Source of the DNA: an uncultured Spirochaetota bacterium
GTDB taxonomy: Bacteria; Spirochaetota; Spirochaetia; SZUA-6; Fen-1364
NCBI GenBank assembly: GCA_963820435.1
Contig: CAWGAC010000008.1
Location: 6,497 to 70,496, forward strand
DNA: 64,000 nucleotides
Direction of reading: 5' to 3'
The notes beneath the pieces are model-generated. The model searched no databases. It was not told the DNA's origin and saw nothing but the letters and a program-made list of their open reading frames with translations. This document shows, one piece after another, positions 3,195-21,953 of the stretch. Position numbers and translations under genes: made by a program. Position 1 is the first letter of the stretch, and the number at the start of each line of letters is the position of its first letter.

Positions 3195-3198
3195 AAAG

Positions 3199-6100
3199 TC
3201 AGCCTCCAGTTCCGTAAGGCGGCGTGTCTTCACGCACCTGCATCGGCTTCGTCATCGCGTTCACCGTCAGAGTAGTAGTGCGCCACCTTCGTCACCTCGT
3301 TCCAGTCGAGGCGCGCCGGGTCGCGGATCGGCTCCTGGAGTCGCGGAGCATTGTCGCAGTCGGTGACGACGTAGAGCCAGAAACAGTCGGGACGGTCTTC
3401 TGCCACGCGCCGCTCATTGGGCGTGAGCAGGATCGTGCCGGTCGCTGCGCCAAGGCCCTTCACCTCGATGAGGCGCAGCTCTCCGGAAGCAAGGTCCAGG
3501 CTCGTGACGTCGTAGCCCAGGTTCTTCTCGGAGACGTCGTAGACCTGCCGCCCCTGCGCCTGCTCGTGCTCCATGACCACGCGCATGGCGATGGCTTCGG
3601 TCTCGAAGTTCGGCTTGAGACGCCGAACCTCGGGCGCCTCGCGCTCGGGGTGTGGCAGCACGAGGACGCTCGCGAGCCGCTCGACTGCCTGGAGCGTGAG
3701 CGCCCGCTGGCGATCGAGGTCGATCCTGCGGCGGTCGCGGCGGGCAAGCAGCTCCGCATGGCGCGTCTCGGCCTGCGCGAGCCGCCCCTCGGCGCCGGGG
3801 AGCTTCTGCTCCACATCGGACGCCGCGCGCCCGATCTCCTCGTCCGCGCGCTGGAGCAGCTCGGTGAGCGAAAGCTCGACGTGGGCGCTGACCCGCTCGA
3901 CCTCGGAAAGGCGATCCTTGCGTGTCTCTTCGAGGAACGGTGCGAGCGCATGCTCGTGAAGCCAAGTCGTCGCCTCGGGGAGGGTCGCGACCGCGGGCAT
4001 CTGGGCCGGCGGGTCCGCAGGCGCGAAGTTGCCGAGCAGGCCGGGCTCCTGGAGCCGAGGTTCGCCGTCCTCGGGGATCTCCACCGCGAAGAGCCGCTCG
4101 TGGACCACCTGCCCGAGTCCATCCACCACGCGCGCCCGGTAGAAGTCGATGCGCGCCGGGCTTTCGTGCTGGAGCGAGTGGAAGGTCGCGCCCTTGCCGA
4201 GCACGTCGAGCGCCCGCGCGTGGGTGTGCCGCCGGATCGCCTCGAAGAGCGGATGGCCGGGCGTGACCCACTCCAGCTTCTCAGTTTCGGCGGTCTCGCG
4301 GTCGGTGGAGCAGCGCGGATAGCGGTCCGCGAGGGCCGGGAGCTTCCAGTCCGGGTCCTTCTCGTAGCGACGGAGGATCGAGGGCGTGCGCGCCGGCTCG
4401 AAGGCGTGCGGCACGCTCGGGACGGTCTTGAGGGTGAGCGGCACGAACTCGGCCGCCTCACGGAGGAAACGCGCGATGGTCTCCGGCACGACGCGCCGCT
4501 CCTGCGCCCGCGCGCGCCGCTCGATCAGCATCTCGAGGTTGAGCTTCTTGCTCGCGAGCCCCTCGAGGGCGTTCTGGCAGATGGCGCGGAACTGCTCCTC
4601 GTCGACATCGCGGAGCATGCGCTCCTCGAGGTCGGCGTCGCCGAGCTTTCCGGCGTAGTAGTCGCGCAGCACGCGCTCGACGTGGGCCGCAGGCAGGACC
4701 TCGCCGACGACGTTGAATACGGCGTCGTCGTCGAGCGCGTCGCGGATCTCCTGCAGCTTCTCCAGCAGCCGCTGCAGGACGCGCCCTTCGATGGTGTTGG
4801 TGGCCACGAAGTTGAAGATCAGGCAGTCCTTGCGCTGCCCGTAGCGGTGGATGCGGCCCATCCGCTGCTCAAGGCGGTTCGGGTTCCAGGGGATGTCGTA
4901 GTTGAAGAGGATGTTGCAGACTTGGAGGTTGATGCCCTCGCCCGCGGCCTCGGTGGCGACCAGAACCTGGATCTCGCCTTCGCGGAACTGCTGCTCGGCG
5001 TGGAGGCGCGTGCCCGGCTCGTCACGCGAGCCCGACTTCATGCCGCCGTGGATGCAGCCGACGCGGAAACCCCAGGACTTGAGGCAGCCCAATGAGGTAG
5101 TCCAGCGTGTCCTTGAACTCGGTGAAAAGGAGCAGGCGCTGGTCCGCGTGGTCAAAAAAGCCTTCCTTCTGGAGCAGCGCCTTGAGTTTCGAGAGCTTCG
5201 CCTCTGTGCCCGCATCCTCGACCGCCTGGGCCTGGACTGCCAGGAGTCGCAGCTCCTGGACCTCCTGGCGCACGAGGTCGGCGCTTCCCGCGAGCGTGAT
5301 CGCCTCGAGCAGCGCCTCCAGCCGGTCGCGCTCGCTCTCCTCCATCTCCTCCAGCTCTTCCGGATCGGGGAGATCTGGCGGCGCCTGGCGGGCGAGATCC
5401 TGCGCACGCTTGAGACCCTCTTCGAGGCGCCGTGCGCGGTTCTCGAGCGAATGCCGCATGGCGTAGGTGCTCGACGCGAGCCGCCGCTGGTAGAGCGACA
5501 TCAGGAACCCGATCGCGCGCGCGCGCGGGTCCTCACCCTCCGCTGCGGCGCGGGCGCTCTCGCGCTTCACGAAGCGCGTCACGTCGCGGTAGAGGTCGAA
5601 CTCCGCCCCGTCGATCTGGAAGTCCACCGTGTGCGGAATGCGCTTGGTGAAGATCGGCTCGGCGGCCCAGGTCCCGTCCGCCCGCCGCTCGGGGAAGTAG
5701 ACCATCGCCTCCTTGGTGCGGCGCAGGTAGAAGGGCGCCCGCCTGCGGTCCATCGCCTCGCGGATCGATTTCACGTCGGCGTAGCGTCGGCGTCGAGGAG
5801 CTGCAGGAACAGGCTGAAGTTCTCCGGATCGCCCTTGTGCGGCGTCGCCGTAAGCAGGAGCAGGTGGTCCGAGGTGTCGCGCAGCAGCTCGCCCAGCCTG
5901 TAGCGCATGCTCTTGTGCGACTCGTCGGAGGCCGACATGCGGTGCGCCTCGTCCACAATGACGAGGTCCCAGTGGACCTGGCGCAACCCGGGCAGGATGT
6001 CCTGCGCGCTTCGCCAAGTCGAGCGAGGTGATGACCCGGCTGCGCTCGAGCCACTGATTCACGCCGAACTGGTCGCGGATGTCCTGGCCTTTGAGGACAA

Positions 6101-6635
6101 GGAACTTGGTATCGAACTTCTCCTTCAGCTCGCGCTGCCACTGGAAGGCGAGGTTCGCGGGGCAGACGATCAGGATGCGCTCGGCGAGGCCGCGCAATTC
6201 CAGCTCGCGGATGAGCAGGCCCGACATGATCGTCTTGCCTGCGCCGGCGTCGTCGGCGAGCAAAAAGCGTACGCGCGCGAGCTTGAGCAGGTAGTCGTAG
6301 ACCGCCTCGAGCTGATGCGGCAGCGGATCGACGCGCGAGATTGAGAGTCCGAAATAGGGATCGAACTCGTAGGCGATGCCGAGCGCATAGGCTTGGAGTC
6401 CAAGCCGCAACAGGCGTCCGTCGCCGTCGAAGGAGTGCTCCGCGTCGAGAACTGTAAGGCGATCGAGATCGGTTCCGGTCAGCGTCACTTTTCGGAACCG
6501 CTCTGACTGCGTACCCACCAGACCGACTACCCAGCTCGCCGGTCCGTTGGCCTGCACGGTTTCGACCCGCATGGGCTCGTTGAAGACGGCGCCCGTCAGA
6601 ATCTGGCCCGGGCTGACGGGTGATAGGCGAGTCAT
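3199..6635 (-). CDS. SNF2-family helicase with C-terminal DUF3883 nuclease-like domain, split by about 4 frameshifts
   Basis: FLLADDAGAGKT (motif I), DEAH, LLLTATPHKG, TEAAGEGINLQ, YDIPWNPNRLEQRMGRIHRYGQ, and C-terminal NLGYDVTS...IEVKG (DUF3883). Pieces are 5022-6749, 5771-5986 and 3230-5407. The restored C-terminus ends at TGA 3199-3201. Confidence 0.85.
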
Positions 6636-6849
6636 CGTGCTGGATCTCCCAATGAGAATGTCGTGCAAGGAACCACCGAGATTGCGCTCCTCTTCTGTGC
6701 CGTGGCCCGTAGCCTCACATAAGGACGTTTCTTTCGAGTAGAATATCACAATTCCAATTGCATTGGATTGCCTCAGACAGTCGCCACCAAATACGCATCA
6801 TGAGAAGCCCAACAAAGGGAAATGGTGCGAGGAACAGCGCCTTTCGGTT

Positions 6850-7300
6850 TCAGCTCTCCCACTTCGATGTAGCGCTCTGATTGTCCAAGAGCATCTCCCT
6901 GATGTTGTATTGATAGGTCTTCTGCTTGGCCGCGGAAAGGACGGCCTCGGCGTCCAGCTTCACGACCTGGGCGTCCGTCTCCTTCAGAACGATTCCCTGG
7001 GCCTTTCCACAATCCTCGAAGGTGGAGCTCACCGTCTTGAAGCGCAGCGCGTCGCGGATGTGCTCAACGTCATGCCAGGGCTTCCTAGCCAGAATCTCGG
7101 GCCTAGCTGCCTTCTCGATGATCCGCTCCTCCAGCTTCAGGTTGGTCTTGGCGTGCTCGGGGCTCAATCCCATGGCCTGGCGTACTTTCTCGAGGGCGGC
7201 GTCCAAAGATGGCTTGTTCTCCTCGCTCAGGCGCTGGAGGGCTCGCGCCTTCTCGATCGTTGGGAAGGGTCCGATCGATCGGGTTGACGATATTCTCCTC
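6850..7300 (-). pseudogene. Possible truncated RelA/SpoT-like nucleotidyltransferase fragment
   Basis: KLEERIIEKAARPEILARKPWHDVEHIRDALRFKTV resembles the K..E...K / IRD.LR motifs of stand-alone RelA/SpoT-like domains. There is no clear start codon and similarity appears to stop after VVKLD. Confidence 0.3.
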
Positions 7301-7866
7301 CCTCACGGCCTCTGTGGGAAGGGCCTGCGCTGGCTGCGCACGGGCCCCTGGCTCGTCCGCGGGCGGTTCTTCAGGTCTCGGTACGGCTGTCCCCGTGGCG
7401 GCCTACTTCTGGTGCATTTTGCCTTTCGAACTCGTCCCTCATCATCTGCCGGGGCTGGCCGGGTTGCTCCGCCTTCCCCTGCTCCATGGCCATTCGGGCG
7501 AAGCTGCCAGCCAGCACACCTGCGCGGCACAGCTTCTCTGCTCTACCGCCGGAGGCCGATGAGCTTTATTTGCGAAAATCACTGCTCCCTGGGTTTGTTC
7601 GGTTGCTAGATTGAGAATGCATTGTTGTATCGTGGCGACGACTGGGCTGTTATGGGAAGGTTTGGATATGACTTAGATCATTCTGCGCCTAATGGTAAGC
7701 TCTTCATAGAGGACAATGTTATGGATGCAGCGAGTGATTCTCTTGCCGCGGCTGCTGATTCAGGGCCCGCAGATTGGCTCTTCTTAAGAGACCCTTGGCA
7801 CGATTGTTGCCGTCTTTCTTGGTGGAAGGAAAGGCAGCCATGCGCAGGCCGGGAGGTGAGACTGGC

Positions 7867-8918: not shown

Positions 8919-11900
8919 CTAGCTACTCCATACCTCGCCGGACAGCCGTCCCCAGACTTCCCGATAATCTCGGCCTGACATCGCGGCGCCCTTTGGGGCG
9001 AACCTGCCCCAGTCATTGTCGTTAAGGGTCCGAAGAAAGGTACGTGCAACGCCGACATTTTGATTGCCCGCGGGAACGCCGGTCTTTCGTTCGAATTCAG
9101 TCCCCAAAGATTCTGCAATGCTCCTCGGGACGCAATTCATGCGCATGAGAACTGCTGCCTCGGTCTTGACGCCATGGTAAATCATAGCTGGCAGGCTGTT
9201 GATTCGGCGCTTCTCTTCTGGGGACAGCCGATCGAAGTCTGTTCCGCTCACTTTGCATAATGCCGAAAGGCCCCAAGGGCCGCTATTGGTCAAAGCCTGG
9301 TAGATCGCCTTGCATGTGTTTGTAATCGCATCCGTGTCCACTTTGTTGCCAAAGAATTGTGTGGCAATTTCCTGAATCGAGCGGCCATCTACCCAGGCGC
9401 GTGTGATGTCGCAATGTGCTGCTGGCTAAGTCCCCGCGTGCTTATTTTTGACAGTGCCTCGTTGATTTGGGGGATGCGCATCATTATCCCGATCAGGCTG
9501 GGAAGAGGAGATGACGCTGCATCTTTGAAAAGGCTCGCGGGTTCCCAGTCTGCTGTAGTCAAGCTTACGCTGCAACTGGTTCAAACCTGCGAGCGCTGCG
9601 GCAACACTCTCCGGGGCAAACCCAGTTGCATCGGCCAGGGCTGCAGGCCCCGGATTGTTCGCAAGCCTCCGCGCATAGTCACCAGTAGCCCTAACAAGGG
9701 CTTCAGTCTTTTGCCTCGCGCTGAGATCCGTGCGTTGCTGTAACGCGCCATAGCCGTAGGTGTTCCGTAGCAGTTGTTCCGTTTCAGCGAGCACGGCGTC
9801 GAGGTTCTTTTTCTCGTTCCAAAGGTGAGCAATATAGCACCTGAAATCAGTCCACTGGTCTTCCTGAATGACCAATGACAACTGGCTGAGCCTGCCCTGC
9901 CGCTCCACTTCGTCGAGCAGTCCGATTAGCCTTGAAACCAATGCTCCGGTCGTCTGGCTTACGAACCGTCGATTACCATCAGGGTCGTCGCCAGCTGCCA
10001 GGCCAACGATGCCGACGCTCTCCTGATTTACGCGTCCTGCCCGGCCCGCGAGGTTCCAGAACGTCCTGGGATTCATTTCCCTTCCGTATGGATACTTCCG
10101 CGTAGCAAGAAAAATGGAGGCAACAGGGAAGTTGATTCCGTGGATAAGAGTCGTGGTTGTGCAGAGCACCCGCAGTGCTCCGATCTCCGCGAGCCACTCC
10201 ATGAGGGTACGCGTCTCGTCCGATAGCCCAGTGTGGTGAACCCCGACTCCTCGGCTGAGCATGTCTATGAGTTCAAACTGGGGGCTAATCTCTGTCATGA
10301 GGAATCGCTGAACTAGGGCGATTTCCGAAGGGACGTCCTCAAACGCCCTGAAGCTATCCTTCACGACCCGCGCCAGAGCCCATACATGGTCTATTTTCTG
10401 GGCAACCGCGATACTGGTCCCGCGTTCGGAGAATACCTTTGCCATAGCCCCGGCTTGAACCGACACACCCTTTGCCTTTGAGAAAGAAATATCCAACGGT
10501 TTAACCGTTCCAACTTGGTGCTGGCCTTGAAGGTGAATGGTTTTCGGCGTAGTGATCAGCGTTTCGAATTGAAGCGTCCAGCCGCCGCGGACCGAATTGT
10601 CCCTTATTTCTTTGAAGAGCCCAACGGCGCGTTCATTCGGTTGCCATGGTGATGTCCCGATACTTATGGTTTTGCCAGCCTCCGCGCCAAGCCATCTCGC
10701 GAGGTCCCCGGCGTTCGGGACGTAAGGCATCAGCAAGAGAAAGCTCGCACGGCCGCACTCGCGCTTGATAGTCGCCAGCAGGAGCTCCATTCGAAGGCCC
10801 CGTTCTTCGTCTTCGATGCCGTGTGCCTCATCCATAACCACCAGCGCCAAGGGGCGCGCAACTTCTTTATTCCGAATCACCAGTTGCAACTTCTCCGGGG
10901 TGGATACTAAAACGTGGAACGGGACCGCATCGGTCTCCGCGGTGAGCATCGCTTCCTCGAAGGCGTCTATCTCAATGGCCCCGCTCAGCTGCTCGACCCG
11001 GATATCCAACGGGCTGAAGTCCTCTCGAAGTCGGCGAGTTATCTGCGACACGAGGGCGCGGGTCGGCGCAACATAGGCCACCCATCCCTTGTCAGCGTCA
11101 AATTGGTTCAAAGCCTGAAGGATTCGGAACTGCGCCAACGCGGTTTTCCCGCCGGAGGTCGGCAAGTTCACGATCACCGCGCGGCTTGCTTGGTCCAGAA
11201 GCCCCTGTTCCTGTATCGCGGCCCTCTGTGGAGGCATGAGTTCGAACATCGAACGAGCTTTAGTAATGCTCTTAACAAAACTTGTAACGCGGGAGTTTAC
11301 AGCTTGGGCCACTTTCCAGAGAGAACCCGAGACCATTCTGCGAGAGGCAGCGTGCAGCCAGCGGAGGATGACCTCCAGCGCCGCGTCCTGTGCAGCAGCA
11401 GCGGCCTTTTGTGCGGCCTCGAAATGCTTATCCAACTCCGCCTCAATTGCAGGCGGATCTCCCTGCAACGTGTAGACTGCAAGAAGCTCCGTCGCCTTGG
11501 CCCAGTGGTACAACGCAATGAGGCGAAGAGCCGTGGCTTGCGCGGCGACATTGTCCGGGCTGGCAAGCGCGGCTGTCTCGTACTGCTGCTGGTCCTTGCG
11601 CAGGCCGGCAATTATTTCCCGAACGCCGTCCAGATCATCCCAGCCCTGTTTGCGTAGGAGGCGCACCCAACAGTCAAACAACCGATAGAGGACCCGGCCC
11701 TCCCAACTCGCATCCGCAACGGACGGCGGCCTGACTTCTCGCTCGTGATCCCTGAGCCAGCGTCGCAGGTCGGTCCATTGATCGCCACAATACGCGAGCG
11801 CCGCCAGATGCAGAACATGGAATATCCTGCCTTCCGCTGCCGTTGGTATAGACAAGATTCGCTGCAGCGAATATGCCCGGTACGCCCCGGCCTGCGCTTG

Positions 11901-12188
11901 CAGGCGCAGTAGAACACGGGCTTCCTCGTCCGAAGGATGCAGGAGTGCATCCAGCCCTTCGATGGCGCCGATTTCGTAAGCCATAGCTGCGCGCTCTACT
12001 ATTTCGTTGTCCGTCGGGGCATCGTCGAAGGTAATCGTCATCTGATGGCCAACAGCGGCTCGCATTACACGAATCTTGGCCACTTCCCAGGCTCGTGCGA
12101 GCGGCTCGTCGCCAAAGGCTTTTACCGCCCAGTGCTGGTCAATGCGGTTGAGGGCGTCTTCGCTTATGACCATGTCAGTTCTTGCCAT
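8919..12188 (-). CDS. Ski2-like DEAD/DEAH helicase, Hachiman HamB-like (frameshift near 9560)
   Basis: LPTSGGKT Walker A, VVMDEAH, GVGVHHTGL, TTTLIHGINFP and NLAGRAGR. Start MARTDMVIS at 12188 overlaps the upstream gene. The C-terminus continues in ORF 8919-9341. Confidence 0.8.
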
Positions 12189-12988
12189 GGCCGCCCTCCC
12201 GCGCCCTCGTTGCGCGTTGAGCAAGTGAGTTGATGGCTTTTCTCGGCAAGTACATCGCGCGAAGTTCGATACTCGTCTTTGCCCGGGCAGCCGGAGGCTA
12301 ACGCCTCCGCACGGTCCGCTAAGTCCTCCCGCTTCGGCTGCACGTCTCTGACGAGGACGCCGAAGAGGGAAATGTCGGTCGGATCGTATAAATAGCGACT
12401 CGCCGCGCTCTGATATCGCCGGAACCATTCCCTTCCGTTGGCATGGTGGCCGAGGTATCTCAAAAGGGAATCCTTGACGTCCGTCAAGTCGCGAAGATTC
12501 TCCAACTGCCTTTTCAAGCCATGACGCCCAGCCATCACGCCCGGCGGCCATCTTTCTTCCTCGGACGTTTTCACCTCACCGAATGCGAAGCGGTGGGAGT
12601 GAGATACTGCGTCAGTTCTCTGAAACCCAACTAGGTCTGTTCCCGCTGGACTGGCGGAAGGATTCTTCAAATCGCGCCCTGAAGGCCAAGGGAACTCGCA
12701 TTGCCGATGCTCGACAAGGAACGCCTCTGCAAGGCCCTCCCCAACACGCCAGCTCTCCGGGGCGTTCCGGTCCCGCAGGATGCGTTTAAAACTCTCGTCA
12801 GAGAAATCCGTAGTGACGAGACTCGCAATAATAGCCTGAAGGTCAGCCGTTCCGGCGTCATCCCATAAAATCTTCGAAACGGAGCCGCCTAACGCGGCAT
12901 CAAGCTCCGTATCCGTAAAGGTCGCCCCTCTCGCAGTCACTGGCAAGACATCCGCAGTGTAGCATTCGGTTCCGACCGCTATGCTCAA
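12175..12988 (-). CDS. HamA/DUF1837-like PD-(D/E)xK nuclease (frameshift near 12290)
   Basis: GEGLAEAFL...GTDLVGF...FAFGEVKTS nuclease-type motif directly upstream of, and overlapping, the helicase. The restored C-terminus KTSIELRAMYLP...GHGKN* ends at 12175. Confidence 0.6.
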
Positions 12989-14022: not shown

Positions 14023-14578
14023 TCAATTCTTTTTTGAAATCCACACGTAGCTCTCATATTCCTTAATTTTTCTTTCAAGTCTCCTTGCAAGGTATTTACT
14101 GCGGGACTTGAGAGCCTTCAATATGCTTTTTGCCTCTTCGCGGTACACCTGTATTTTCTCGTCCGTCCAGTGGGAAGGCGGATGTCCAAGGTTGACAATT
14201 CGATCTGCCATTTTGACCATTCCAATCTCAGGCGGTTCTTTAAGAACTCGATCCAGGCTGTCAGCCATAGCGGCAGCTTTTGATAGTCCTTTTTTCTTTG
14301 TTAGCGCTGAGACGCCCAAATAGACCTCTCGTCCGAACGCTTCCTGGACTTCCACGGGCTTTATGCTGGTATCCTCCAAGGTGTCATGTAGAAGTGCACA
14401 CGCTATTGCCAATTCCGCCTTGGCCTTGGAATGGTATTGAAGGGCTGCAATAACTTCGCCGCACACAGCCGCCAAATGCACTGCATACCCATACGGGTTG
14501 CCAGGAACCTTTTGGTTCTTGTGCGCAATGGCACCGAAATTCAAGTGCTTTCCTATAGACCTCTATTGACCAAGCCAT
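14023..14578 (-). CDS. HD-domain small alarmone hydrolase (Mesh1/SAH-like), frameshift near 14540
   Basis: AHKNQKVPG.PY..H, LLHDTLED and VKMADRIVNL motifs. The N-terminus MAWSIEVYRKALEF lies in the neighbouring frame. Confidence 0.8.
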
Positions 14579-14675: not shown

Positions 14676-15140
14676 TCACGCGCTGTCCAGGGCTTCCTCG
14701 GACGGTCGGGCATAAAGGGCGGACGATCGACCCGGCTCGGAGGCGGGTTCTCGCTGGTCAAGGCAGTCGGCGTCTGGGATGATGGCGCTCCCTTCCGCCA
14801 CGGACCTCGTGGACAATTCTGTGTTGAAGTCCGAATTGAATTGTGGATCCCTTCTCGTTTTTTCTTGGGCACGTTTAAAGTGGGCTTCCGCGGCGGATGC
14901 AGCCTCCGTTGGAATAGCCTGCGCAGCCTGCGCACGGGCCATTGGTGCGCCCTCGGGCAGTTCGCCGGTCTTCAGTACGGGGATGGCCCCTTCGGTCGGT
15001 TCTGGTCGATTTTCGCTTTCAGACTTTTCCCTGAAATACCGCCTGGCTCGGTCGGCCCTGCGGAGGGTCGTTCCTGACGTCGTAGGCGACGTCTCATTTG
15101 GGCGCTCTTGGGCCATAGTTGAACTACTGCAAATCATCAA
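14676..15140 (-). CDS. Hypothetical low-complexity protein
   Basis: 154-aa ORF co-oriented with the island backbone; no family recognised. Confidence 0.35.
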   Translation of the reverse strand: MMICSSSTMAQERPNETSPTTSGTTLRRADRARRYFREKSESENRPEPTEGAIPVLKTGELPEGAPMARAQAAQAIPTEAASAAEAHFKRAQEKTRRDPQFNSDFNTELSTRSVAEGSAIIPDADCLDQREPASEPGRSSALYARPSEEALDSA

Positions 15141-15171
15141 GGGGACGTCTTGGCCCGGCTCGGAGGCGCGT

Positions 15172-15828
15172 TCAGAATCTACACTTCAAAATCCAACAGG
15201 CCTTTTGGACGTCACCAAACTCCTTGTAGCGCTTGCACCATTTTGCGACCGTGCCCTTGCTTACGCCGATGGCACGCGCAGTCTGACGCTGTGAGGGCCA
15301 CACTTTGAAAATAAAGTCTGGATGGTAAGTTGAGGGCCGACCACGCCTTCGCTCCCTCCTTATCGAACTACTATTACGCGCGTATTCTGGGTTCATAACT
15401 ACCCGCCGCCGTCTATAGCGACGAGGTGGAAAACGATCTGGGTAATGCCTCAGGAGGTCTTGGATGAAGCGAAACATCATGTAGAACTCCTTGTGTCGGC
15501 GGCGCCAGCGTAACGCTGTTGTTTTATCAATTTTGAAACTATCGAGTGCTTTTAGCCAAGCCCCTCCCGTATTTGCCCAGCGACAACAAATGTCGATCGC
15601 CAGCTCCCTGGAGTAGCGCGATGGCCTTCCGCCCGGGTGCTTAACTTTTGGGATGCCGAGGGCGTCTACGAAATATGACCTCCGGAGATAGACTTCTTCT
15701 ATGAAGAGTGGCGCGCACTTCTCCAAGTTCAGTCGTTCGGGGTCGGGCGGCACACGCTGAAGCCACTCGCGCAGCGTCAACCTCTCCCCTTCATACGCGG
15801 CCCACCATTCGTATCCCCAAGTGCTCAT
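15172..15828 (-). CDS. Terminase-small-subunit-like protein with two tandem HTH units
   Basis: GGRPSRYSRELAIDIC...TALRWRRRHKEF and GRPSTY...TARAIGVSKGTVAKWCKRYKEF both match the GRP(S/T)xY...T...W...HxEF pattern of phage TerS/DNA-packaging HTH domains. Confidence 0.55.
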   Translation of the reverse strand: MSTWGYEWWAAYEGERLTLREWLQRVPPDPERLNLEKCAPLFIEEVYLRRSYFVDALGIPKVKHPGGRPSRYSRELAIDICCRWANTGGAWLKALDSFKIDKTTALRWRRRHKEFYMMFRFIQDLLRHYPDRFPPRRYRRRRVVMNPEYARNSSSIRRERRRGRPSTYHPDFIFKVWPSQRQTARAIGVSKGTVAKWCKRYKEFGDVQKACWILKCRF

Positions 15829-15980
15829 AGAACCACCGAACAACCCGGTTCTCGTTTTTGCCGAGCGCGACCATTGCCGGTTGCCGTTACGAGTCCTGGA
15901 CCTCGGTCAGCCGCTTTTTCGGCTCTTCGCGGAGAAGACGAGAGGAGACTAGGACCGGTCAGTAAGTAAGGGTCACCCAT
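15825..15980 (-). CDS. Small hypothetical protein (51 aa)
   Basis: ATG preceded by a GGGAGGT RBS; its stop overlaps the terS-like start (ATGA). Confidence 0.3.
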   Translation of the reverse strand: MGDPYLLTGPSLLSSSPRRAEKAADRGPGLVTATGNGRARQKREPGCSVVL

Positions 15981-16021
15981 CGGCTACCTCCCTCTCTTCA
16001 CACCGTCGCTGTTGAACCTCC

Positions 16022-16520
16022 TCACATTGAATGAGGCGCGGGTCTGGAGAATCTATAGGACTCGCTCCATTGCTCCTCGAGCAGGCTGTATGGCTTCCCC
16101 GTCGACACTCGCCGCGCCTCAGCATGTTCCTCCGTCATTTGTTCATCAGAGAGTCGCTCCAGAACTGCTTTTGCTATGATTGCGAGCACCGAAGGATGAA
16201 ATGGCTCGTCATGGCCCGCTGCCTTCATTTGTGTGATTGCTTTCCCATTCACAACGCGAGCCCATTTGGAAAAATCCTTGCCATCCTCGTCGAAGAAGAA
16301 TCGCGCCTTGTCAGGTTTCTGCTCTAGGCAAGCTTCCCAAGCCTTCTCAACTATTTTCGGACCTTCAGCTGCTGCGAGGATTCTCTCGCCCTTTGCCCAG
16401 AAGTCAGGCGGCATTCGATTGATGTCGACGCGTGCCTTCTCTGCGGCTTTTTCCATCTTTGTCCGAAGAGATGAGGGGAATGAACTATTCTGGGAAGCCT
16501 GGTCTCGAGCCACCTCCGAA
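16022..16520 (-). CDS. Hypothetical protein, probably the C-terminal half of the IS-interrupted replication protein
   Basis: Begins immediately at the IS left junction and has no RBS of its own. Joining across the empty site with a 4-bp duplication is off by one base, so the join is inferred. Confidence 0.45.
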
Positions 16521-16530
16521 CTAGCTAGAG

Positions 16531-16932
16531 TTAGTCGGGTAATTTCTGGCTTTTCAGTGCGCGCTTTCCCTGAGCGCGCGCAGCTGACGCCTTGCGTGTT
16601 GGGGACGGCAGTTCCTTGAGAAGGCGATCGGTGGCGCGCAACGACAGCCGCTCCATCTGAGCGATGATTTTGTCCATTTCGCGGCCGGTGGCAATCCAGC
16701 CTGCGAGAAGGTCGGCCTGTTCATGGGTCAGGCGGACGGTAACAGTCTTGCCAGCGACCTTGCGGGTCCACTGATAATAGGGACCGTGGAGGCGAGGTGG
16801 AGAAGCCTGGCAGGCGCAGCCGGGCTTGCCGCAGGGCATGAAGCGTTTCAGCAGGGTGCCGCGGCGAAAGTAGCCCAGGTGGCTGAGGGCGCGCTGAAGG
16901 TCTTGGTAGTGCTGTGCAGGAGTGTTGTTCAT
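16531..16932 (-). CDS. DUF6788-like IS-associated protein
   Basis: RRGTL...CGKPGCAC...HGPYYQWTRKVAGKTVTVRL pattern; the stop lies inside the left inverted repeat. Confidence 0.7.
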   Translation of the reverse strand: MNNTPAQHYQDLQRALSHLGYFRRGTLLKRFMPCGKPGCACQASPPRLHGPYYQWTRKVAGKTVTVRLTHEQADLLAGWIATGREMDKIIAQMERLSLRATDRLLKELPSPTRKASAARAQGKRALKSQKLPD

Positions 16933-16943
16933 AGGCATAGAGC

Positions 16944-16971
16944 TTGACAGAAATCCATCTACAGTTAAAAT
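16944..16971 (+). promoter_or_regulatory. Sigma70-type promoter for the transposase
   Basis: TTGACA-16 bp-TAAAAT, 45 bp upstream of the transposase ATG. Confidence 0.55.
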
Positions 16972-17015
16972 ACTGATAGACATGTTCTCCGTCAAGCCTC
17001 AGGAGGTCAAGGTCC

Positions 17016-18407
17016 ATGAACATTACATCCGGCCCTTCCAGCCGGCAAGGCGATCTTCTGCCCCGATCCAAGCGCCCGACCATTCTCCTTGCGCAGGACC
17101 ACCGACTGGTCCATCTGACCGACACCCTGGAGTGGAGCGAATTGGAGCAACGAGCCCAGCAGGTTCGAGCTCAAAAACTCAAAAACGCCGCTGGGCGGCC
17201 GCCGCACTTGCGTGCCTCCTTGGGTGCCATGCTGCTGATGGCCACCCGCAAGCTAACCTACCGGGAGGCCGAGGACCTTATCCGCTACTACGCCCCCGCG
17301 CGGTACTTGTGCGGGCTGACCGAAACGCAGTGGACCCCGGACTTCACCACCATCCAGGACTTCACCCAGCTCATGGGCGAGGAAGGGATCAAACTCATCA
17401 ATCAATACGTGGTGCAAATGGCGGTGAAACAGAAGTTGGCGGACCCCAGGACTGCGGTCGCCGACACGACTGCGCAGGAAGCGGCGATCCCCTATCCCAA
17501 CGAGATGGGGCTCATGACTGGCTTCCTGACCTCGGTGGCAAGTGCAGCCCGGAAGCTCGGCCGAGGGCTGAAGGGATTTGTGGAGCAGACGGCCGGTCGA
17601 TTCAAAGCGGCCAGGCAGAAAGCGCGAGAATACCGCCTGTTTGCCAAGACCAAGGAGAGCAAGGATCGGGTGATGGGCCAGATGGCCAGCATCGTCGAGA
17701 AGTTGAACGAGAATCTGGAGGAGGCGTTGGGCGCCCCTGCCGCACAACAAGCAAAGCTACGCAAACAGGCGATCGTGGCCAAGAGCAAGCTGGTGCAGTT
17801 GCGCGAAACGATGAGCAAACTGCTGCCGCAGATCCGCTACTGGATTCGCACGGGCTACGTGGCGAGCGGCAAGATTATCAGCCTGCATATCCCGCAACTC
17901 TACAGCATCGTGCGCGGCAAAGTGGGCAAGACGGTGGAGTTTGGGCTGAGCTGGGGCATCACGCGACTGTCGGGTGGCTACCTATTGGCCACGCTGGCCC
18001 AGGATCGCCACGAGTTGCAGGATACGAAGTTCGCAGTGCGAGCGGTCAAGGACCACATCGCGTTATTTGGCGAGGCGCCGCTGGCCTACGCCTACGATCG
18101 CGGTGGATACAGCGCACAGAATGTCTCCCACTTGAAGAAGCTGGGGGTCAAGGAGGTGGGACTGGCCCCCCGCGGACGTACACAGTGGTCTGTGAGCGGG
18201 GCGGTTCGCGTCCGGCTGGTCAGGGAGAGGGCAATGGTGGAGGCGGGTATCGGAACCATCAAGGGCTCGAGGTATGGATTCAACCGTCCCTCTGCACGCT
18301 CTGCCCCTATGATGGGCGCCTGTGGGCAGCGCGCGGTGTTGGGATTCAACGCCACCAAGCTTGTGCGCGAATTGGCAGGGCGCAAAGCCATTACACTGAG
18401 CGGCTAA
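17016..18407 (+). CDS. IS5-family DDE transposase
   Basis: N-terminal DUF772-like region; ADTTAQEAAIPYP (first D), GKTVEFG, AYDRGGY (second D) and RAMVEAGIG (E). Intact 463-aa ORF. Confidence 0.85.
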   Translation: MNITSGPSSRQGDLLPRSKRPTILLAQDHRLVHLTDTLEWSELEQRAQQVRAQKLKNAAGRPPHLRASLGAMLLMATRKLTYREAEDLIRYYAPARYLCGLTETQWTPDFTTIQDFTQLMGEEGIKLINQYVVQMAVKQKLADPRTAVADTTAQEAAIPYPNEMGLMTGFLTSVASAARKLGRGLKGFVEQTAGRFKAARQKAREYRLFAKTKESKDRVMGQMASIVEKLNENLEEALGAPAAQQAKLRKQAIVAKSKLVQLRETMSKLLPQIRYWIRTGYVASGKIISLHIPQLYSIVRGKVGKTVEFGLSWGITRLSGGYLLATLAQDRHELQDTKFAVRAVKDHIALFGEAPLAYAYDRGGYSAQNVSHLKKLGVKEVGLAPRGRTQWSVSGAVRVRLVRERAMVEAGIGTIKGSRYGFNRPSARSAPMMGACGQRAVLGFNATKLVRELAGRKAITLSG

Positions 18408-18552
18408 CGACGGGGCGCCAAGCGACGAGGCTGACAGTGTACCCGTGGGGGGTACGCCTGGAAAACACCGAGCACACCAGAGGGCGCGACATGAGCCCGC
18501 TGACCGCCGCACACCGAGCGGACGGGCGTCTGAATTACCCGACAAGCTGTAG

Positions 18553-19066
18553 CTAGTTCGTGAAGAGCCCCTTCCTTGATTGGCTTTGGTTCAGAGGGTT
18601 CTAGTTTGGGTGACCGTAAGTCACTACCCGTAGTGAACGGAGGACACCATGGTAGTGGCTGTGTGTCACTACCTTGCTCGGTCTGTGGTAGGGGTGGTGA
18701 CGGTAGTGCACTACCCCTGAATTTCCGCCTGCGCACGATCTTGTAGCAATTCGATGTGGGATCACCTTTCTTGTCGTGCCTCGGCCTCTTAATTATGTGC
18801 CCGCGTGCTTCTAGTTTTTTTACTGCCCGAATGGCCGACCTGCGGGAACATCCTGATTCCACAGCTATTGTGGCGAAACTCGGAAACGAGTTATCGTCGT
18901 TCCTACCTGCATGATAGGCCAGGCACCAAATGACGGCACGGTCTATAGGCCTGAGCGAGGCGTCCAGAAACCAGTCATCTTCGAGTTGGGTGAAGGCGTG
19001 TTTGCATCGAACTCTTAGAGAATCCCCTTCGGGCGGTTGGGCCTGCGCGTCTCTATTGCTGGACAT
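18553..19066 (-). CDS. Phage-type replication initiator, N-terminal winged-HTH part (interrupted by the IS)
   Basis: FPSFATIAVESGCSRRSAIRAVKKLEARGHI (HTH_36-like), then SNCY and a GS-P-rich linker typical of lambda-O-like initiators. The predicted ORF runs into the IS after KEGALHE. Confidence 0.65.
18621..18715. repeat. Array of six CACTACC/GGTAGTG heptamers in three inverted pairs (candidate origin iterons)
   Basis: CACTACC at 18622, 18667 and 18709; GGTAGTG at 18651 and 18702; CGTAGTG at 18629. Includes the inverted repeat TCACTAC-CC-GTAGTGA and the perfect palindrome GGTAGTGCACTACC. Confidence 0.8.
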
Positions 19067-19083
19067 CGGCAGCCACTCGATCG

Positions 19084-19311
19084 CTAACCGAGGAATTCAA
19101 AGCCGTCATGCTTAAGACCCGGCCGTTCGACAGTGCAAGAGCGGGGTCGAACTGAGCTCTTTTCGTCCTTCCAACTCTCGGTCTGGGCGGCGGAAGCATC
19201 ACGGCTCCCGTTTTGGATTCCAACTTTCAGCGCATCAAGGATCGGAAAGCCAATGACCTCGCGTACCGCCAAGCACGAGCCTCTCGTTGGGGTTCGCTGT
19301 CTGTCACTCAT
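19084..19311 (-). CDS. Small hypothetical protein
   Basis: 75-aa ORF whose start overlaps the end of the upstream ORF in a tightly packed same-strand run. Confidence 0.35.
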   Translation of the reverse strand: MSDRQRTPTRGSCLAVREVIGFPILDALKVGIQNGSRDASAAQTESWKDEKSSVRPRSCTVERPGLKHDGFEFLG

Positions 19312-19486
19312 CCCGCCCTTTTTGCTCTGGCTGCATTTTTGATGTCAGGGTTCGTTCGACCCTGGACAGTTTTCCCCCATGGAGAACGAGCTTTACCGCA
19401 ACTTCGCCGAATTGGGTAAGGCGGGCCTGTTCCTCCAGCCACGAGACCGCTCGTTCGATTTCGGCTATCAGTTTTTCATCGCTCAC
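19304..19486 (-). CDS. DUF2292/YezD-like small protein
   Basis: QFGEVAVKLVLHGGKLSRVER pattern; overlaps the end of the xis-like gene. Confidence 0.55.
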   Translation of the reverse strand: MSDEKLIAEIERAVSWLEEQARLTQFGEVAVKLVLHGGKLSRVERTLTSKMQPEQKGRDE

Positions 19487-19673
19487 GGGCGCGTGGCTCC
19501 ACTCTGCGGCTTTCCACCCAGTGTCGTAGTCGCTCGGGCTCGAAACGCACGAGCTTTGAACCTAACTTTAGGTAGGGCAGTTTACCCAATGAAACGTAGC
19601 GGCGGAGCGTGTGCTCAGAAAGTCCCAAGAAGTCCGCAGCCGCCCCATAGTCAAGTAGTCCAACGCTTTCCAT
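19476..19673 (-). CDS. Excisionase / HTH_17 (AlpA-like) DNA-binding protein
   Basis: LLDYGAAADFLGLSEHTLRRYVSLGKLPYLKLGSKLVRF..ERLRHWV; GGGAGG RBS before the ATG. Confidence 0.8.
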   Translation of the reverse strand: MESVGLLDYGAAADFLGLSEHTLRRYVSLGKLPYLKLGSKLVRFEPERLRHWVESRRVEPRARER

Positions 19674-19783
19674 GTCGCTGGTCCTCCCACATCTAAATGG
19701 TAGGCCAGTGGAGCGCACTCCGGATAAGGATAAGAATTGTAGATCTACGCGGTGTATTTCTATCCTGTTCTAATCTGACTGCG

Positions 19784-20512
19784 TCAGTTTTCGGCTGGTC
19801 TGCGTGCTTTTGGCCGAGAAAGTACGCCTTTGATTGTCTGTGCCAGAGCGTCTCGACTCCGGATGGGAGTCTGATTCTCAAGGGTCATTGCCACCATATT
19901 CAAGAAAGGCCCTTCGAAGTGACCAATATAGTCGTTCCAGTACACAGTTCCTTTCCCGCCTGATGCTCGGTAAATACTATAGAGTTTCGCGATGTACCAT
20001 TTGACATCGTAGTCCGGCCTGCGGCCGGATTTCCGTTTCGGCAGTTTTTCGAGTCTATCCTCCGCGAAGCCTGTCCACAACCCAAGACGTCGAATCAGGT
20101 CGCTGCAATCCTCGAGTAATGGAAGTAACGGCAGCGGTTTCTTCGAGGCCCGGCCCTTACCGTCTAATTTTAGAAACTTACTGACTTCCTGAATGAAAGA
20201 GCGATCCGGTCGCAACACAGCCATCTCTGCGGCCCTACCACCGAACAGGAGCCCGACGTCGCGAAGTATAAGGCCATTGATACGGCGTAGCGTTTCACTG
20301 CAGCGACGACAGTCTTTTGCGAGTGTTATCCATAGTCTTCGCGTTTTCTTGTCAGTGTGCGACGGCGCCCACTTTGCCAAAAGGAAGAGGGTGTGATTCA
20401 CTAAGAATTTGGCTGCTTGCAAAGGGGGCAGATCAATGCCCGCTGCTTTCGCTATCCTGACAAATGGATCGTAGTTGGGCCAGGCAGGAGGCTTCCGCTT
20501 TCGGTCAGCCAT
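19784..20512 (-). CDS. Hypothetical protein between integrase and excisionase
   Basis: 242-aa ORF with a GGAG RBS, 10 bp after the integrase stop. The C-terminal GRRP...LYSIY...GPF motif is reminiscent of integrative-element genes. Confidence 0.65.
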   Translation of the reverse strand: MADRKRKPPAWPNYDPFVRIAKAAGIDLPPLQAAKFLVNHTLFLLAKWAPSHTDKKTRRLWITLAKDCRRCSETLRRINGLILRDVGLLFGGRAAEMAVLRPDRSFIQEVSKFLKLDGKGRASKKPLPLLPLLEDCSDLIRRLGLWTGFAEDRLEKLPKRKSGRRPDYDVKWYIAKLYSIYRASGGKGTVYWNDYIGHFEGPFLNMVAMTLENQTPIRSRDALAQTIKGVLSRPKARRPAEN

Positions 20513-20522
20513 GGCAGACTCC

Positions 20523-21764
20523 TTATCCGATTGAATTGGTCGGCATGAGGCAGAAACTGGAGCTATGTGATTCGGCGACCGAAGGGAAGTGGACGGGCTG
20601 GTCCAGCATTTTTCCCTGCAGCTCCACCACCTCCGTGAAGTCAGCTGCCCGGAAGTGGGTGTAGTGTTGGCTCATCTTTGATGATCTGTGCCCCGTGATC
20701 TCTCTCACTTTCGCCTCAGGAACTCCTTTCGATAGGAGCAAGGTGTTCAGGAAGTGCCGGTGGGAGTGGAATGTTATGCCGCGTTGTTTTCGCTCGACCT
20801 CCTGGATGCCGATCAGCCGCATCGCCGCATAGAGTTTCTTCTCAATCCAATTCTTACTGATAGGGGTATCTTTCCTGGAGCCGCAATAGAACAAGATCGT
20901 GTTGGGTTTCGTTTCTGCGATAACCCGGCTCAGGGCGGTCCCAACGCGGGCTGAGATGGGCACATCGCGGACGCTACCGAACTTGGGGGGCTTTAGCCCA
21001 TATCCCTGTTCCCACGAGTGGCGGATCTCGACGTAGCCGGCCTTCACGTTCTCCACGCACAGGCCCCGTATCTCTCCCATGCGCATGCCCGTCGTCACAG
21101 CAAGGAGGTTGATCGTATAGTGCCGGTAGTCGCCCCACACGGCTGGGTCGGAAAGTAGCCGGGAGACCTCCTCTGGGCTGAGGATCCCGCGCTCGACTCC
21201 CTGGGCCCTTACAGGTTTCACAAAGGCTGCAGGATTTTCGGTGAGCCAACCGTCTGCCACGGCCCGCCCCAAAATGGTCCGCAGTGTCTGTAGCAGCTTG
21301 TTCACCGTTGCCGGGGCGATCGCCCCTTCTCGACACAGCCTGACTACCCACGCGTCGATCCTTCCGGGCGTGAGATCCTTCAGTCTGTGCTCGCCCCAGG
21401 CCGGGAGGATGTGGTTCCGGGTGTTGCTTTCGGCGATGTCCAGATAGCCCCTGGAACAAGAGTAGAGGTGTGCCATGCGTGACTGAGCGTATGCACCGTC
21501 GACGCTCCAGAAGCCTTTTGCGTACTCGCCCAAGGTGATGTGCTCCGCCTGCTCCTTTGCTTCGGCTGCCGACCTATCGGCTTGAGCCAAGTAGCGCTCG
21601 CACCAACGCACAGCCTCGTCCCGGCGGGTGCAGCCAGTTGATATCGCGCTTCGCCTCTGTCCAGTATCCAGATCGCGGAACCGAGCGTAGTAGATCGGTT
21701 TCCGTTGGCTCGGCCTTTTGTGAACGCTGTAAGGAGGTGTAGGGCGGACTGTTCGGCGTTCCAT
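20523..21764 (-). CDS. Tyrosine recombinase / phage integrase
   Basis: All catalytic residues visible: TGMRMGE (R), PPKFG (K), FHSHRH (HxxR), TGH, HYTH (Y). SAM-like domain upstream. Confidence 0.93.
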   Translation of the reverse strand: MERRTVRPTPPYSVHKRPSQRKPIYYARFRDLDTGQRRSAISTGCTRRDEAVRWCERYLAQADRSAAEAKEQAEHITLGEYAKGFWSVDGAYAQSRMAHLYSCSRGYLDIAESNTRNHILPAWGEHRLKDLTPGRIDAWVVRLCREGAIAPATVNKLLQTLRTILGRAVADGWLTENPAAFVKPVRAQGVERGILSPEEVSRLLSDPAVWGDYRHYTINLLAVTTGMRMGEIRGLCVENVKAGYVEIRHSWEQGYGLKPPKFGSVRDVPISARVGTALSRVIAETKPNTILFYCGSRKDTPISKNWIEKKLYAAMRLIGIQEVERKQRGITFHSHRHFLNTLLLSKGVPEAKVREITGHRSSKMSQHYTHFRAADFTEVVELQGKMLDQPVHFPSVAESHSSSFCLMPTNSIG

Positions 21765-21856
21765 GTTGACTCCGTTTCCCGCGAGCGCCTAAGGTGGTCA
21801 TACTCGTGGTCACATCTGAGCTACATGGAAGCGCCGGTTTTCCGGTGGCTTCCTAT

Positions 21857-21873
21857 TCCCTACAACGTAGGGA
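21857..21873 (-). terminator. Short hairpin just downstream of tRNA-Val
   Basis: TCCCTAC-AAC-GTAGGGA perfect 7-bp stem; no U-tract. Confidence 0.35.
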
Positions 21874-21879
21874 CTTATA

Positions 21880-21953
21880 TGGGCGATACTGGATTTGAAC
21901 CAGTGACTTCTACCGTGTGAAGGTAGCACTCTGGGCCGCTGAGTTAATCGCCC
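21880..21953 (-). tRNA. tRNA-Val (anticodon CAC)
   Basis: Folds as a 74-nt cloverleaf: acceptor GGGCGAT/ATCGCCC, anticodon arm CTACC-TTCACAC-GGTAG, T-loop TTCAAAT; CCA not encoded. Confidence 0.95.

Follow-up and report, generated by a model that had tools for sequence, protein, structure and literature searches.

The question raised by the locus described here is whether a small island beside a tRNA-Val gene, carrying an integrase, a replication initiator and a gene related to phage small terminases (TerS), is a phage satellite or some other kind of integrative element. The locus lies in a stretch of 64,000 nucleotides (the window) from an uncultured member of the Spirochaetota. The window corresponds to C8:6497-70496 of a metagenome-assembled genome of 33 contigs and 5.33 Mb, with a GC content of 0.62 and a completeness of 75%. 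Coordinates are window positions unless prefixed by C6, C8 or C28, which are contigs of the same genome; L and G labels denote loci and genomes, respectively.

The comparison that frames the question is with phage-inducible chromosomal islands (PICIs), which are built from five core components: an integrase, a regulation module, a primase-replicase, a capsid-morphogenesis or interference gene, and a small terminase (PMC10085698). The island at tRNA-Val very probably belongs to a coherent family of integrative elements, and it is a defective member of a family that is PICI- and tycheposon-like. The plan of the family is a tRNA gene, an integrase gene (int), a variable open reading frame (ORF), a helix-turn-helix (HTH) gene of the HTH_17 Xis/AlpA type, a small ORF, a replication module, a gene for a double-homeodomain (double-HTH) protein, and then cargo. 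The family targets tRNA 3' ends and swaps both its replication modules and its cargo. The reading favored here, though only tentatively, is that the backbone in the window is a self-replicating satellite island integrated at tRNA-Val and packaged by way of a TerS-derived protein, as in PICIs.

The backbone, its relatives and the tRNA-Val site

The genes next to the tRNA are co-directional, all lying on the minus strand and reading away from the tRNA 3' end (Table 1). An earlier note on this DNA had placed the island at tRNA-Val and had described a one-strand succession of integrase, unassigned ORF, xis-type, initiator and TerS-like genes; both descriptions are borne out, the first by ARAGORN and Rfam, and the Rfam scan finds no RNA besides this tRNA. 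The integrase is 85% identical over 398 amino acids (aa) to that of a related locus, L056, and 44% identical to that of L017, both of which also adjoin tRNA-Val. Its nearest named record is a 66%-identical integrase, again beside tRNA-Val, in a metagenome-assembled genome labeled 'uncultured Spirochaetales bacterium'. Class-level relatives from a genome search fit the Spirochaetia as well, which makes the spirochaete host guessed in the earlier note reasonable. With its PF00589 and phrog_1 matches, the window integrase corresponds to the integrase component of PICIs. The PICI regulation module, for which an alpA, merR or stl homologue is sought, is represented by the 80-aa HTH_17 protein, which also has weaker MerR-type matches, falls in phrog_66 ('excisionase and transcriptional regulator') and is homologous to the HTH_17 genes of L016 and L017. 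The peptide that had been called DUF2292-like is a real, conserved 60-aa ORF, but the DUF2292 label is unsupported because the ORF has no Pfam match. A further small ORF, at 19084-19311, has no support as a gene and was set aside.

Table 1. Features of the island and its surroundings (window positions)
Feature	Position	Strand	Evidence or detail
tRNA-Val(cac), integration target	21880-21953	-	ARAGORN and Rfam
Tyrosine integrase, 413 aa	20523-21764	-	PF00589 (E 2.8e-20); phrog_1 (E 1.2e-51)
242-aa ORF, variable slot between int and xis	19784-20512	-	No family match
HTH_17/excisionase-AlpA-type protein, 80 aa	19476-19718	-	PF12728 (E 1e-9); phrog_66 (E 8e-9); TIGR01764 (E 1.8e-6)
Conserved 60-aa ORF	19304-19486	-	38% identical to the same-position ORF in L017
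Initiator, N-terminal half (HTH_36 winged helix and linker), lambda-O-like	18557-19066	-	PF13730 (E 1e-11); phrog_270/8540/391
Iteron-like array in initiator gene, candidate origin	18609-18716		Three 21-nt units, spacing 45 and 42 nt
IS5/ISNCY-like insertion sequence with CTAG duplications	16521-18556		Insertion sequence proper 16525-18552, 2028 bp
Transposase of the insertion sequence, DUF772	17016-18407	+	Best scores: ISNCY and IS5 NCBIfam models
DUF6788 gene in the insertion sequence	16531-16995	-	E 5e-29
Initiator, C-terminal half, displaced by the insertion sequence	16022-16520	-	Residues 152-245 of the C6 paralogue, other frame
Double-homeodomain TerS-derived protein, 218-223 aa	15172-15843	-	phrog_309, phrog_1482
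Conserved segment after the double-HTH gene, end of shared backbone	14885-15171		84-91% identical to L054, L055 and L001
HD-domain protein like the SpoT/RelA hydrolase domain, first cargo gene	14023-14544	-	phrog_990 (E 9e-20); TIGR00691 (E 2e-9); PF01966 (weak)
PDC-M23 candidate defense pair	8919-12988	-	PADLOC PDC-M23A (E 2e-92), PDC-M23B (E 0)
Hma-like system, higher GC	166-6749	-	SNF2+NOV_C helicase, AIPR/AbiU, DUF1156 methylase

Relatives of the island, at independent loci, were found by context look-ups and by a metagenome scan; L054, L055 and L056 are close, and L016, L017 and L037 are distant. In L056, the 3' part of tRNA-Val is followed by int, a 255-aa ORF, xis and the small ORF (together 70% identical to the window at the nucleotide level), a primase-like gene of 799 aa with a weak match to the CHC2 zinc finger, and the double-HTH gene. 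L055 contains the integrase C-terminus, the ORF, xis, the small ORF, 2.8 kb of other sequence and the double-HTH gene, while L054 contains a Prim-Pol+PriCT_1+AAA_25 gene (633 aa), the double-HTH gene, the conserved 300 nucleotides (nt) and a NACHT-like ATPase gene. L016 runs from int through a 485-aa ORF, HTH_17, a Prim-Pol/DnaG-zinc-ribbon gene (890 aa) and a 99-aa ORF to the double-HTH gene. In L017-L019, tRNA-Val and int are followed at a distance by an insertion sequence (IS), HTH_17, the small ORF, AAA_25 and the double-HTH gene, and further on by a cluster of PrsW, Vsr, PLD, MZB (DUF1998) and helicase genes; the helicase/MZB/PLD/Vsr portion is read here as DISARM-like. L037 and L038 show tRNA-Pro, int, a 311-aa ORF, HTH_17, a 321-aa ORF, ParA, a 280-aa ORF, the double-HTH gene and an SNF2 helicase gene. 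Finally, L015, L036 and L020 contain a DUF3631-type replication protein gene, in some cases the small ORF, and the double-HTH gene, with int alongside in L015 and L036.

Across these loci the int, xis, small-ORF and double-HTH genes are mutually homologous, whereas the replication genes are not. Wherever the gene upstream of double-HTH is visible it is of a replication type, except that in L037 it is an unassigned ORF next to ParA. On the longer contigs int and HTH_17 are visible as well, with tRNA-Val or tRNA-Pro beside int in three cases. The 242-aa ORF between int and xis, which has no match in Pfam, PHROGs or NCBIfam, occupies a slot that is filled by an unrelated ORF of 184-485 aa in L016, L017, L037 and L056. 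Cargo varies as well, being PDC-M23 here, the NACHT-like ATPase in L054, helicase/MZB/PLD/Vsr in L017 and SNF2 in L037. Thus, a search for the same backbone with other cargo, proposed in the earlier note, reveals a genuine recurring module. The GC content of the family ranges from 0.41 to 0.60.

The end of the shared backbone is marked by a change in nucleotide identity. The window is 93-100% identical to L054, L055 and L001 over most of the double-HTH gene, and identity collapses at ~14885, which is therefore taken as the junction between backbone and cargo; the shared backbone is 14885-21879, close to the extent given before. The nearest homologue of the double-HTH protein is 78% identical. 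Within its gene, 15290-15600 is 98-100% identical to the same three loci across the double-HTH core, in contrast to integrases that are 85% identical and N-terminal double-HTH segments that are 55-76% identical; this pattern is the signature of recent recombination between elements. The backbone has a GC content of 0.54-0.57, lower than the 0.62 of the genome. The double-HTH gene is not present in the genomes of 12 congeneric species, and among 401 genomes sampled from the phylum only this one has a near-full-length match. Low GC together with this distribution indicates horizontal acquisition.

In the ORFs tested left of the tRNA, and in the 6.5 kb beyond the window, there is no match to a capsid, portal, large terminase (TerL), tail or relaxase gene. 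The absence of structural and conjugation genes claimed earlier therefore holds in Pfam and PHROGs scans over the 28 kb to the contig end, and the tail, holin, portal and head-tail genes that a PICI should not carry are missing throughout. Nor do the called genes of the related loci include a large terminase, portal, capsid, tail or relaxase. These observations bear on the idea that the locus is a degraded prophage from which the structural genes have been deleted. Its integrase, excisionase-type, O-like initiator and TerS-like genes are indeed phage-type functions, and several genes are broken. However, no structural, lysis or TerL gene lies within 28 kb, structural and TerL genes occur in none of the related contexts, and the relatives are compact, their cargo beginning ~300 nt past the double-HTH gene. 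A prophage origin is highly improbable.

The tRNA-Val site is a hot spot in the genus, with different islands in G006, G007, G008 and G009. Intact repeat pairs at the G006 and G009 islands, enclosing 11.6 kb and 16.8 kb, respectively, define the attachment (att) core in the genus as the 3' 42-46 nt of tRNA-Val, roughly window 21880-21925. The G009 island (1869-18669 of L045, which is G009:C3:236001-256000) lies at the same tRNA-Val and is edged by perfect 25-nt repeats. It encodes a related integrase, an HTH_17-containing ORF, AAA_25, a Mob_Pre relaxase and an AbiEii-type nucleotidyltransferase, and by eye its cargo includes CbiM/Q/O-like transport genes and LarE/LarC/LarB-like (nickel-pincer cofactor) genes. 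It is an integrative mobilizable element with nickel-cofactor cargo. Given its Mob_Pre relaxase, islands at the tRNA-Val site do carry a transfer module, although positional equivalence is loose.

Another explanation is a patchwork: unrelated remnants would have accumulated at the hot spot, the integrase coming from one element, rep from a second and the defense islands from still others, and the backbone would not be one element. Consistent with this idea are the different islands in the four congeners, the mosaic composition of the region, with a serine-recombinase fragment at the contig start, an integrase remnant and partial tRNA on C28, and a 47%-identical paralogue of the initiator in a different element on C6. 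However, L055 and L056 repeat the order from int to double-HTH on single contigs, with 70-86% nucleotide identity to the window in the shared parts, and int, xis, the small ORF and double-HTH co-occur in distant elements. Because of L055 and L056, the patchwork explanation is largely refuted for 14885-21879, and it holds as a possibility left of ~6.7 kb; for the locus as a whole it is improbable.

The double-homeodomain protein and packaging

The hallmark gene of the family encodes a protein with two GRPxxY...W.W...F units. When the window protein is searched alone, it matches the TerS families phrog_309 and phrog_1482 through its HTH units only, and Pfam gives generic HTH families. An exhaustive HMMER search, with E up to 1e-3, recovered 46 representatives at 50% identity, most of which keep the two-unit architecture. 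Among 34 members, 24 match phrog_309, 19 match phrog_1482, 23 match HTH_Tnp_1_2 and 12 match Pfam Sf6_terminase. The best and sole significant match of the family profile to solved structures is the Sf6 gp1 small terminase (3HEF, 4DYC; E 7.8e-11; gp1 residues 7-119). In this alignment, which is weak near residue 119, the second GRPxxY falls on NPRKYG of gp1. The window protein alone matches gp1 with E 1.4e-3, over the DNA-binding domain only. Its AlphaFold (AF2) model (pLDDT 79.6) contains two confident three-helix HTH bundles, linked by one helix and a basic, low-confidence stretch, and the best, weak, Foldseek matches of the model are TerS or phBC6A51-type homeodomain HTH units.

Judged from these alignments, the double-HTH protein appears to be derived from Sf6-type TerS or to share ancestry with it, but it is apparently not a canonical TerS. 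The N-terminal HTH of an Sf6-type TerS is present: the N-terminal GRPxxY...W...F homeodomain-type DNA-binding domain of gp1 and the next helix align. In contrast, the other features of such a protein, namely central oligomerization helices, a C-terminal beta-barrel and a neighboring terL gene, are not found. The central helical hairpin is not confidently present, a second homeodomain takes the place of the beta-barrel, there is an extra 60-residue segment at the N-terminus, and the gene never lies beside a large terminase gene. Thus, the TerS-like gene of the earlier note is homologous to packaging small terminases in its DNA-binding domain, whereas its architecture is atypical and the remainder is without a fold match; as the small-terminase component of a PICI it has the same standing.

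If the backbone is a satellite, its genes suggest the following cycle. Int and Xis would excise the island at the ~45-nt core in the tRNA 3' end, and the lambda-O-like initiator would bind heptamer iterons within its own gene, leading to episomal replication. The TerS-derived protein would then bind island DNA and pass the island to the large terminase of a helper phage, so that the island would be transferred by transduction in borrowed capsids, and the distal defense genes would repay the host. The packaging site may lie in the conserved 300-nt segment that follows double-HTH.

Several observations weigh against this cycle. The likeness to TerS is secure for the DNA-binding domain alone, and TerS-type homeodomains are also found in transposases and regulators. 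The AF2 model has no beta-barrel and no confident oligomerization core, the region that would oligomerize being short, basic and of low model confidence, and a Foldseek search of PDB and BFVD with this model gives nothing significant. There is no TerL gene beside the double-HTH gene in any context examined. A capsid-morphogenesis or interference gene is not recognized when ORFs are compared with Pfam and PHROGs, with family-less ORFs remaining. The search for a helper prophage proposed in the earlier note gives no marker: Phage_capsid (HK97), TerL_ATPase and Terminase_6N are not found in this 75%-complete genome, whereas control genomes matched, and virulent helper phages would be invisible to such a search of host genomes. 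Three family members have no close relative among IMG/VR viral contigs. In addition, no att duplicate is detected in the 28.4 kb from the tRNA to the contig start (C8:1-28300) by patterns with up to 3 mismatches, a whole-genome fuzzy search or blastn-short with word size 7. The earlier note had proposed a search for a second att left of the window and had set its absence beforehand as refuting its proposal; the absence found here extends over the contig only, and the flanking att sites of a PICI are likewise not seen on it. Finally, excision, replication and packaging are proposed from the genes alone. Therefore, of the undescribed satellite family that the earlier note proposed, the recurring family and the PICI-like plan stand, while an att duplicate, a helper marker and close IMG/VR relatives of three members were not found. 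For the family as a whole, satellite status is possible but less than probable.

Almost as likely as the satellite reading is that the same family is a plasmid-like integrative cargo shuttle, either a cargo tycheposon or a small integrative mobilizable element. The double-HTH protein might then regulate transcription, assist excision as an accessory factor or bind a centromere, and transfer might occur by vesicles, transformation, generalized transduction or conjugative mobilization. In keeping with a shuttle, a ParA gene lies just upstream of double-HTH in L037, the interchangeable replication modules resemble those of plasmids or phages, and the G009 island at the same tRNA is mobilizable, with its Mob_Pre relaxase and metabolic cargo. 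The lack of TerL, capsid and interference genes in every context, the three members without close relatives in viral contig collections, and the lack of conservation of the TerS oligomerization and beta-barrel parts also fit such an element. On the other hand, among solved structures the family significantly matches only a small terminase, its PHROG matches are chiefly to TerS families, and the order of int, alpA-type, pri-rep, terS-like and accessory genes is the PICI plan (PMC10085698). Moreover, the relaxase and/or oriT expected of an integrative mobilizable element is not seen: no relaxase family occurs among the ORFs of the window, and neither a relaxase nor an oriT-type gene is found in this island or around double-HTH in the related loci.

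The broken initiator, the distal end and the cargo

The copy in the window is almost certainly non-autonomous because an IS lies in the initiator gene, a frame mismatch remains there, and attR is missing; it is probably immobile. The split of the initiator is certain because an intact 338-aa paralogue at C6:439020-440036 is collinear with both halves (52% and 35% identity), the N-terminal half aligning to residues 3-152. The paralogue also explains the lambda-O-like label, which stands because the N-terminal domain of the paralogue matches the lambdoid 'DNA replication protein O' (36% identity, E 6e-6) and the window initiator matches phrog_270/8540/391, which are replication initiation families. 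A plasmid search with the initiator gives no match.

The inserted element, a 2.03-kb IS that goes unmentioned in the earlier note, ends in 28-nt terminal inverted repeats and is flanked by CTAG target duplications at 16521-16524 and 18553-18556. Its DUF6788 gene, on the strand opposite to the transposase, apparently has a passenger or accessory role. The right end of the IS, at ...GCTGTAG, is placed by comparison with another, partial copy at C8:196611-197498 that is flanked by TTAG. The initiator ORF is not restored when the IS is removed computationally, whether the inverted repeats are taken out with it or one CTAG is left behind; after notional precise excision the halves are off by one base, as a result of either a further mutation or an assembly error.

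The initiator gene contains a candidate origin, an iteron-like array built from inverted GGTAGTG/CACTACC heptamers in its linker-coding part. Five exact heptamers and one single-mismatch copy lie within 18622-18715 (95 bp), compared with a genome-wide density of 0.059 per kb. The C6 paralogue has two units of the array in the corresponding position, even though the protein linker encoded around them is poorly conserved. A winged-helix N-terminus and repeats in or near the gene, as in iteron-type (lambda O-like) initiators, are both present. Together, the C6 paralogue match, the PHROGs and the heptamer array bear out, as an observation, the lambda-O-like initiator with internal iterons described earlier. 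As in lambda O and other iteron-type initiators, an HTH_36 N-terminal domain is combined with inverted-repeat iterons in the linker part of the gene itself. Differences from lambda O are a C-terminal domain without relationship to the families tested, the absence of a P-like or DnaB-loader gene downstream, and the splitting of the gene by the IS. The primase-replicase of PICIs is not found in this copy, which has the split HTH_36 O-like initiator instead; the statement that the island lacks the primase usual in PICIs is thus correct for this copy, but its closest relatives carry primases.

The distal boundary is less clear. The only other att copy in the genome, at C28:262416-262458, is a 43-nt partial tRNA-Val 3' end in the correct orientation. 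Within C28:261843-262654, it is flanked on one side by an integrase remnant of 153 aa, which abuts an amidase gene and shares 49% identity with the N-terminus of the window integrase, and on the other by an arm of 200 nt with homology to the distal ends of the islands in G006 and G009. This structure is a tandem-junction or attP-like relic, and the copy could be the missing far end of the window island. As regards the tRNA-3'-end arrangement of tycheposons, int adjoins a full tRNA-Val here, and partial-tRNA repeats are seen at the G006 and G009 islands and on C28, but the distal repeat of the window copy was not found. No link could be made between the right end of C28 and the left end of C8, which have no sequence in common. 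That end (C28:267707-276097) is a ~4-kb fold-back (inverted) duplicate, 98% identical, and is most likely an assembly chimera. Comparison with an empty site was likewise tried and set aside, since at this tRNA the congeners all have either other islands or breaks in the contig, and synteny with C8 is lacking in their far flanks.

Beyond the backbone, the first cargo genes form a low-GC block that includes the HD protein, the PDC-M23 pair and a plus-strand ORF without an assigned family. PDC-M23A is 12164-12988. PDC-M23B spans 9426-12551, and its C-terminal tail lies in a different frame, at 8919-9341, where a 140-aa ORF matches positions 928-1060 of the B model. At the end of the block opposite to the HD protein, a 118-aa ORF (6850-7206) has a faint RelA_SpoT synthetase-like match. 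This ORF and the HD protein, which is of the small-alarmone-hydrolase type, could be an alarmone-based toxin/antidote or counter-defense pair. A repeat at 14902-15032, within the conserved segment after the double-HTH gene, has a direct copy of ~130 nt at 7308-7439 (73% identical), and the two copies thus bracket a 7.4-kb cargo of HD and PDC-M23 genes. The right copy contains the palindromic AGCCTGCGC twice. The repeats might be a cargo-exchange site or a second-backbone remnant.

Left of ~6.7 kb the GC content steps from 0.54-0.59 to 0.64-0.69, and the Hma-like system begins. It comprises an HmaA-like SNF2+NOV_C helicase (3230-6749) split over at least three frames, AIPR/AbiU (2042-3175) and a DUF1156 methylase (166-1467) that runs on to the left of the window, where DUF499 and a GGACT (gamma-glutamyl cyclotransferase-like) gene at C8:4423-4887 are found. 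At the contig start (C8:2-~500) lies the C-terminal part of a large-serine-recombinase-type integrase (phrog_95, E 3e-8), reading toward the DUF499/DUF1156/SNF2/AIPR block. The fragment suggests a second mobile element carrying the Hma-like block, and the DNA left of ~6.7 kb was probably acquired separately. The defense cargo of at least 14 kb described earlier is therefore confirmed in gene content, but not as the cargo of one element, given the GC step and the serine-recombinase fragment. Frameshifts in PDC-M23B, in the SNF2 helicase and in an integrase at C6:435771-436915 are either real decay or assembly indel errors.

Significance and relation to known systems

No described family with the double-HTH protein as its hallmark was found, though the kind of element is already known. 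A more doubtful extension of the satellite reading is that this protein defines a group of undescribed satellites, which would integrate at tRNA genes, use plug-in replication modules (O-type/iteron, Prim-Pol-AAA_25, CHC2-zinc-finger primase-like or ParA-linked), carry anti-phage cargo after the 300-nt segment and live in hosts of varied GC. If its members are satellites, PICI-like phage parasitism would extend to the Spirochaetota, where this could be the first report, and to uncultured lineages. The double-HTH protein would then be a new kind of protein for redirecting packaging, made by rebuilding a small terminase to include another DNA-binding domain, and the family would be a clean natural example of replication modules and defense cargo being swapped while int, xis and double-HTH stay constant. 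Should the elements not be satellites, they are still a compact, previously unnamed vehicle for defense systems. The significance of the window locus itself is more modest, since it is an IS-broken copy without a detectable distal att.

Over 99.9% of PICIs lie in the Proteobacteria and Firmicutes, and thousands of unclassified 'Type C' PICI-like clusters have been noted (PMC10085698). The family resembles PICIs, both SaPIs (Staphylococcus aureus pathogenicity islands) and Gram-negative examples such as EcCICFT073, in being a small site-specific island with a co-directional int and an AlpA/Xis-type regulator, followed by a replication module with its own origin, a terS-type gene and then accessory (often defense) genes, and in lacking tail, lysis and portal genes. 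At the level of the family, four of the five core functions (PMC10085698) are present. The likeness is one of gene content and order; no sequence relationship to known PICI genes has been established. It differs from PICIs in lacking a capsid-morphogenesis or interference gene and in having a 'TerS' with a second homeodomain but without a beta-barrel; this copy has an iteron/O-type initiator rather than pri-rep, and the host belongs to the Spirochaetales. Furthermore, neither a helper phage nor induction is known for the family.

The family also resembles the tycheposons of Prochlorococcus (bioRxiv 10.1101/2020.12.28.424599), which are likewise tRNA-seeded islands with an integrase directly downstream of the tRNA. 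Both show partial-tRNA repeats, tandem or decayed elements, integrase fragments, and swapping of integrase and replication modules, and tycheposons come in two flavors, cargo carriers and PICI-like forms with terS. The two groups belong to different phyla and their genes are unrelated as far as tested. In addition, terS/MCP-bearing tycheposons never carried extra cargo (bioRxiv 10.1101/2020.12.28.424599), whereas here a terS-like gene and defense cargo are combined in one element.

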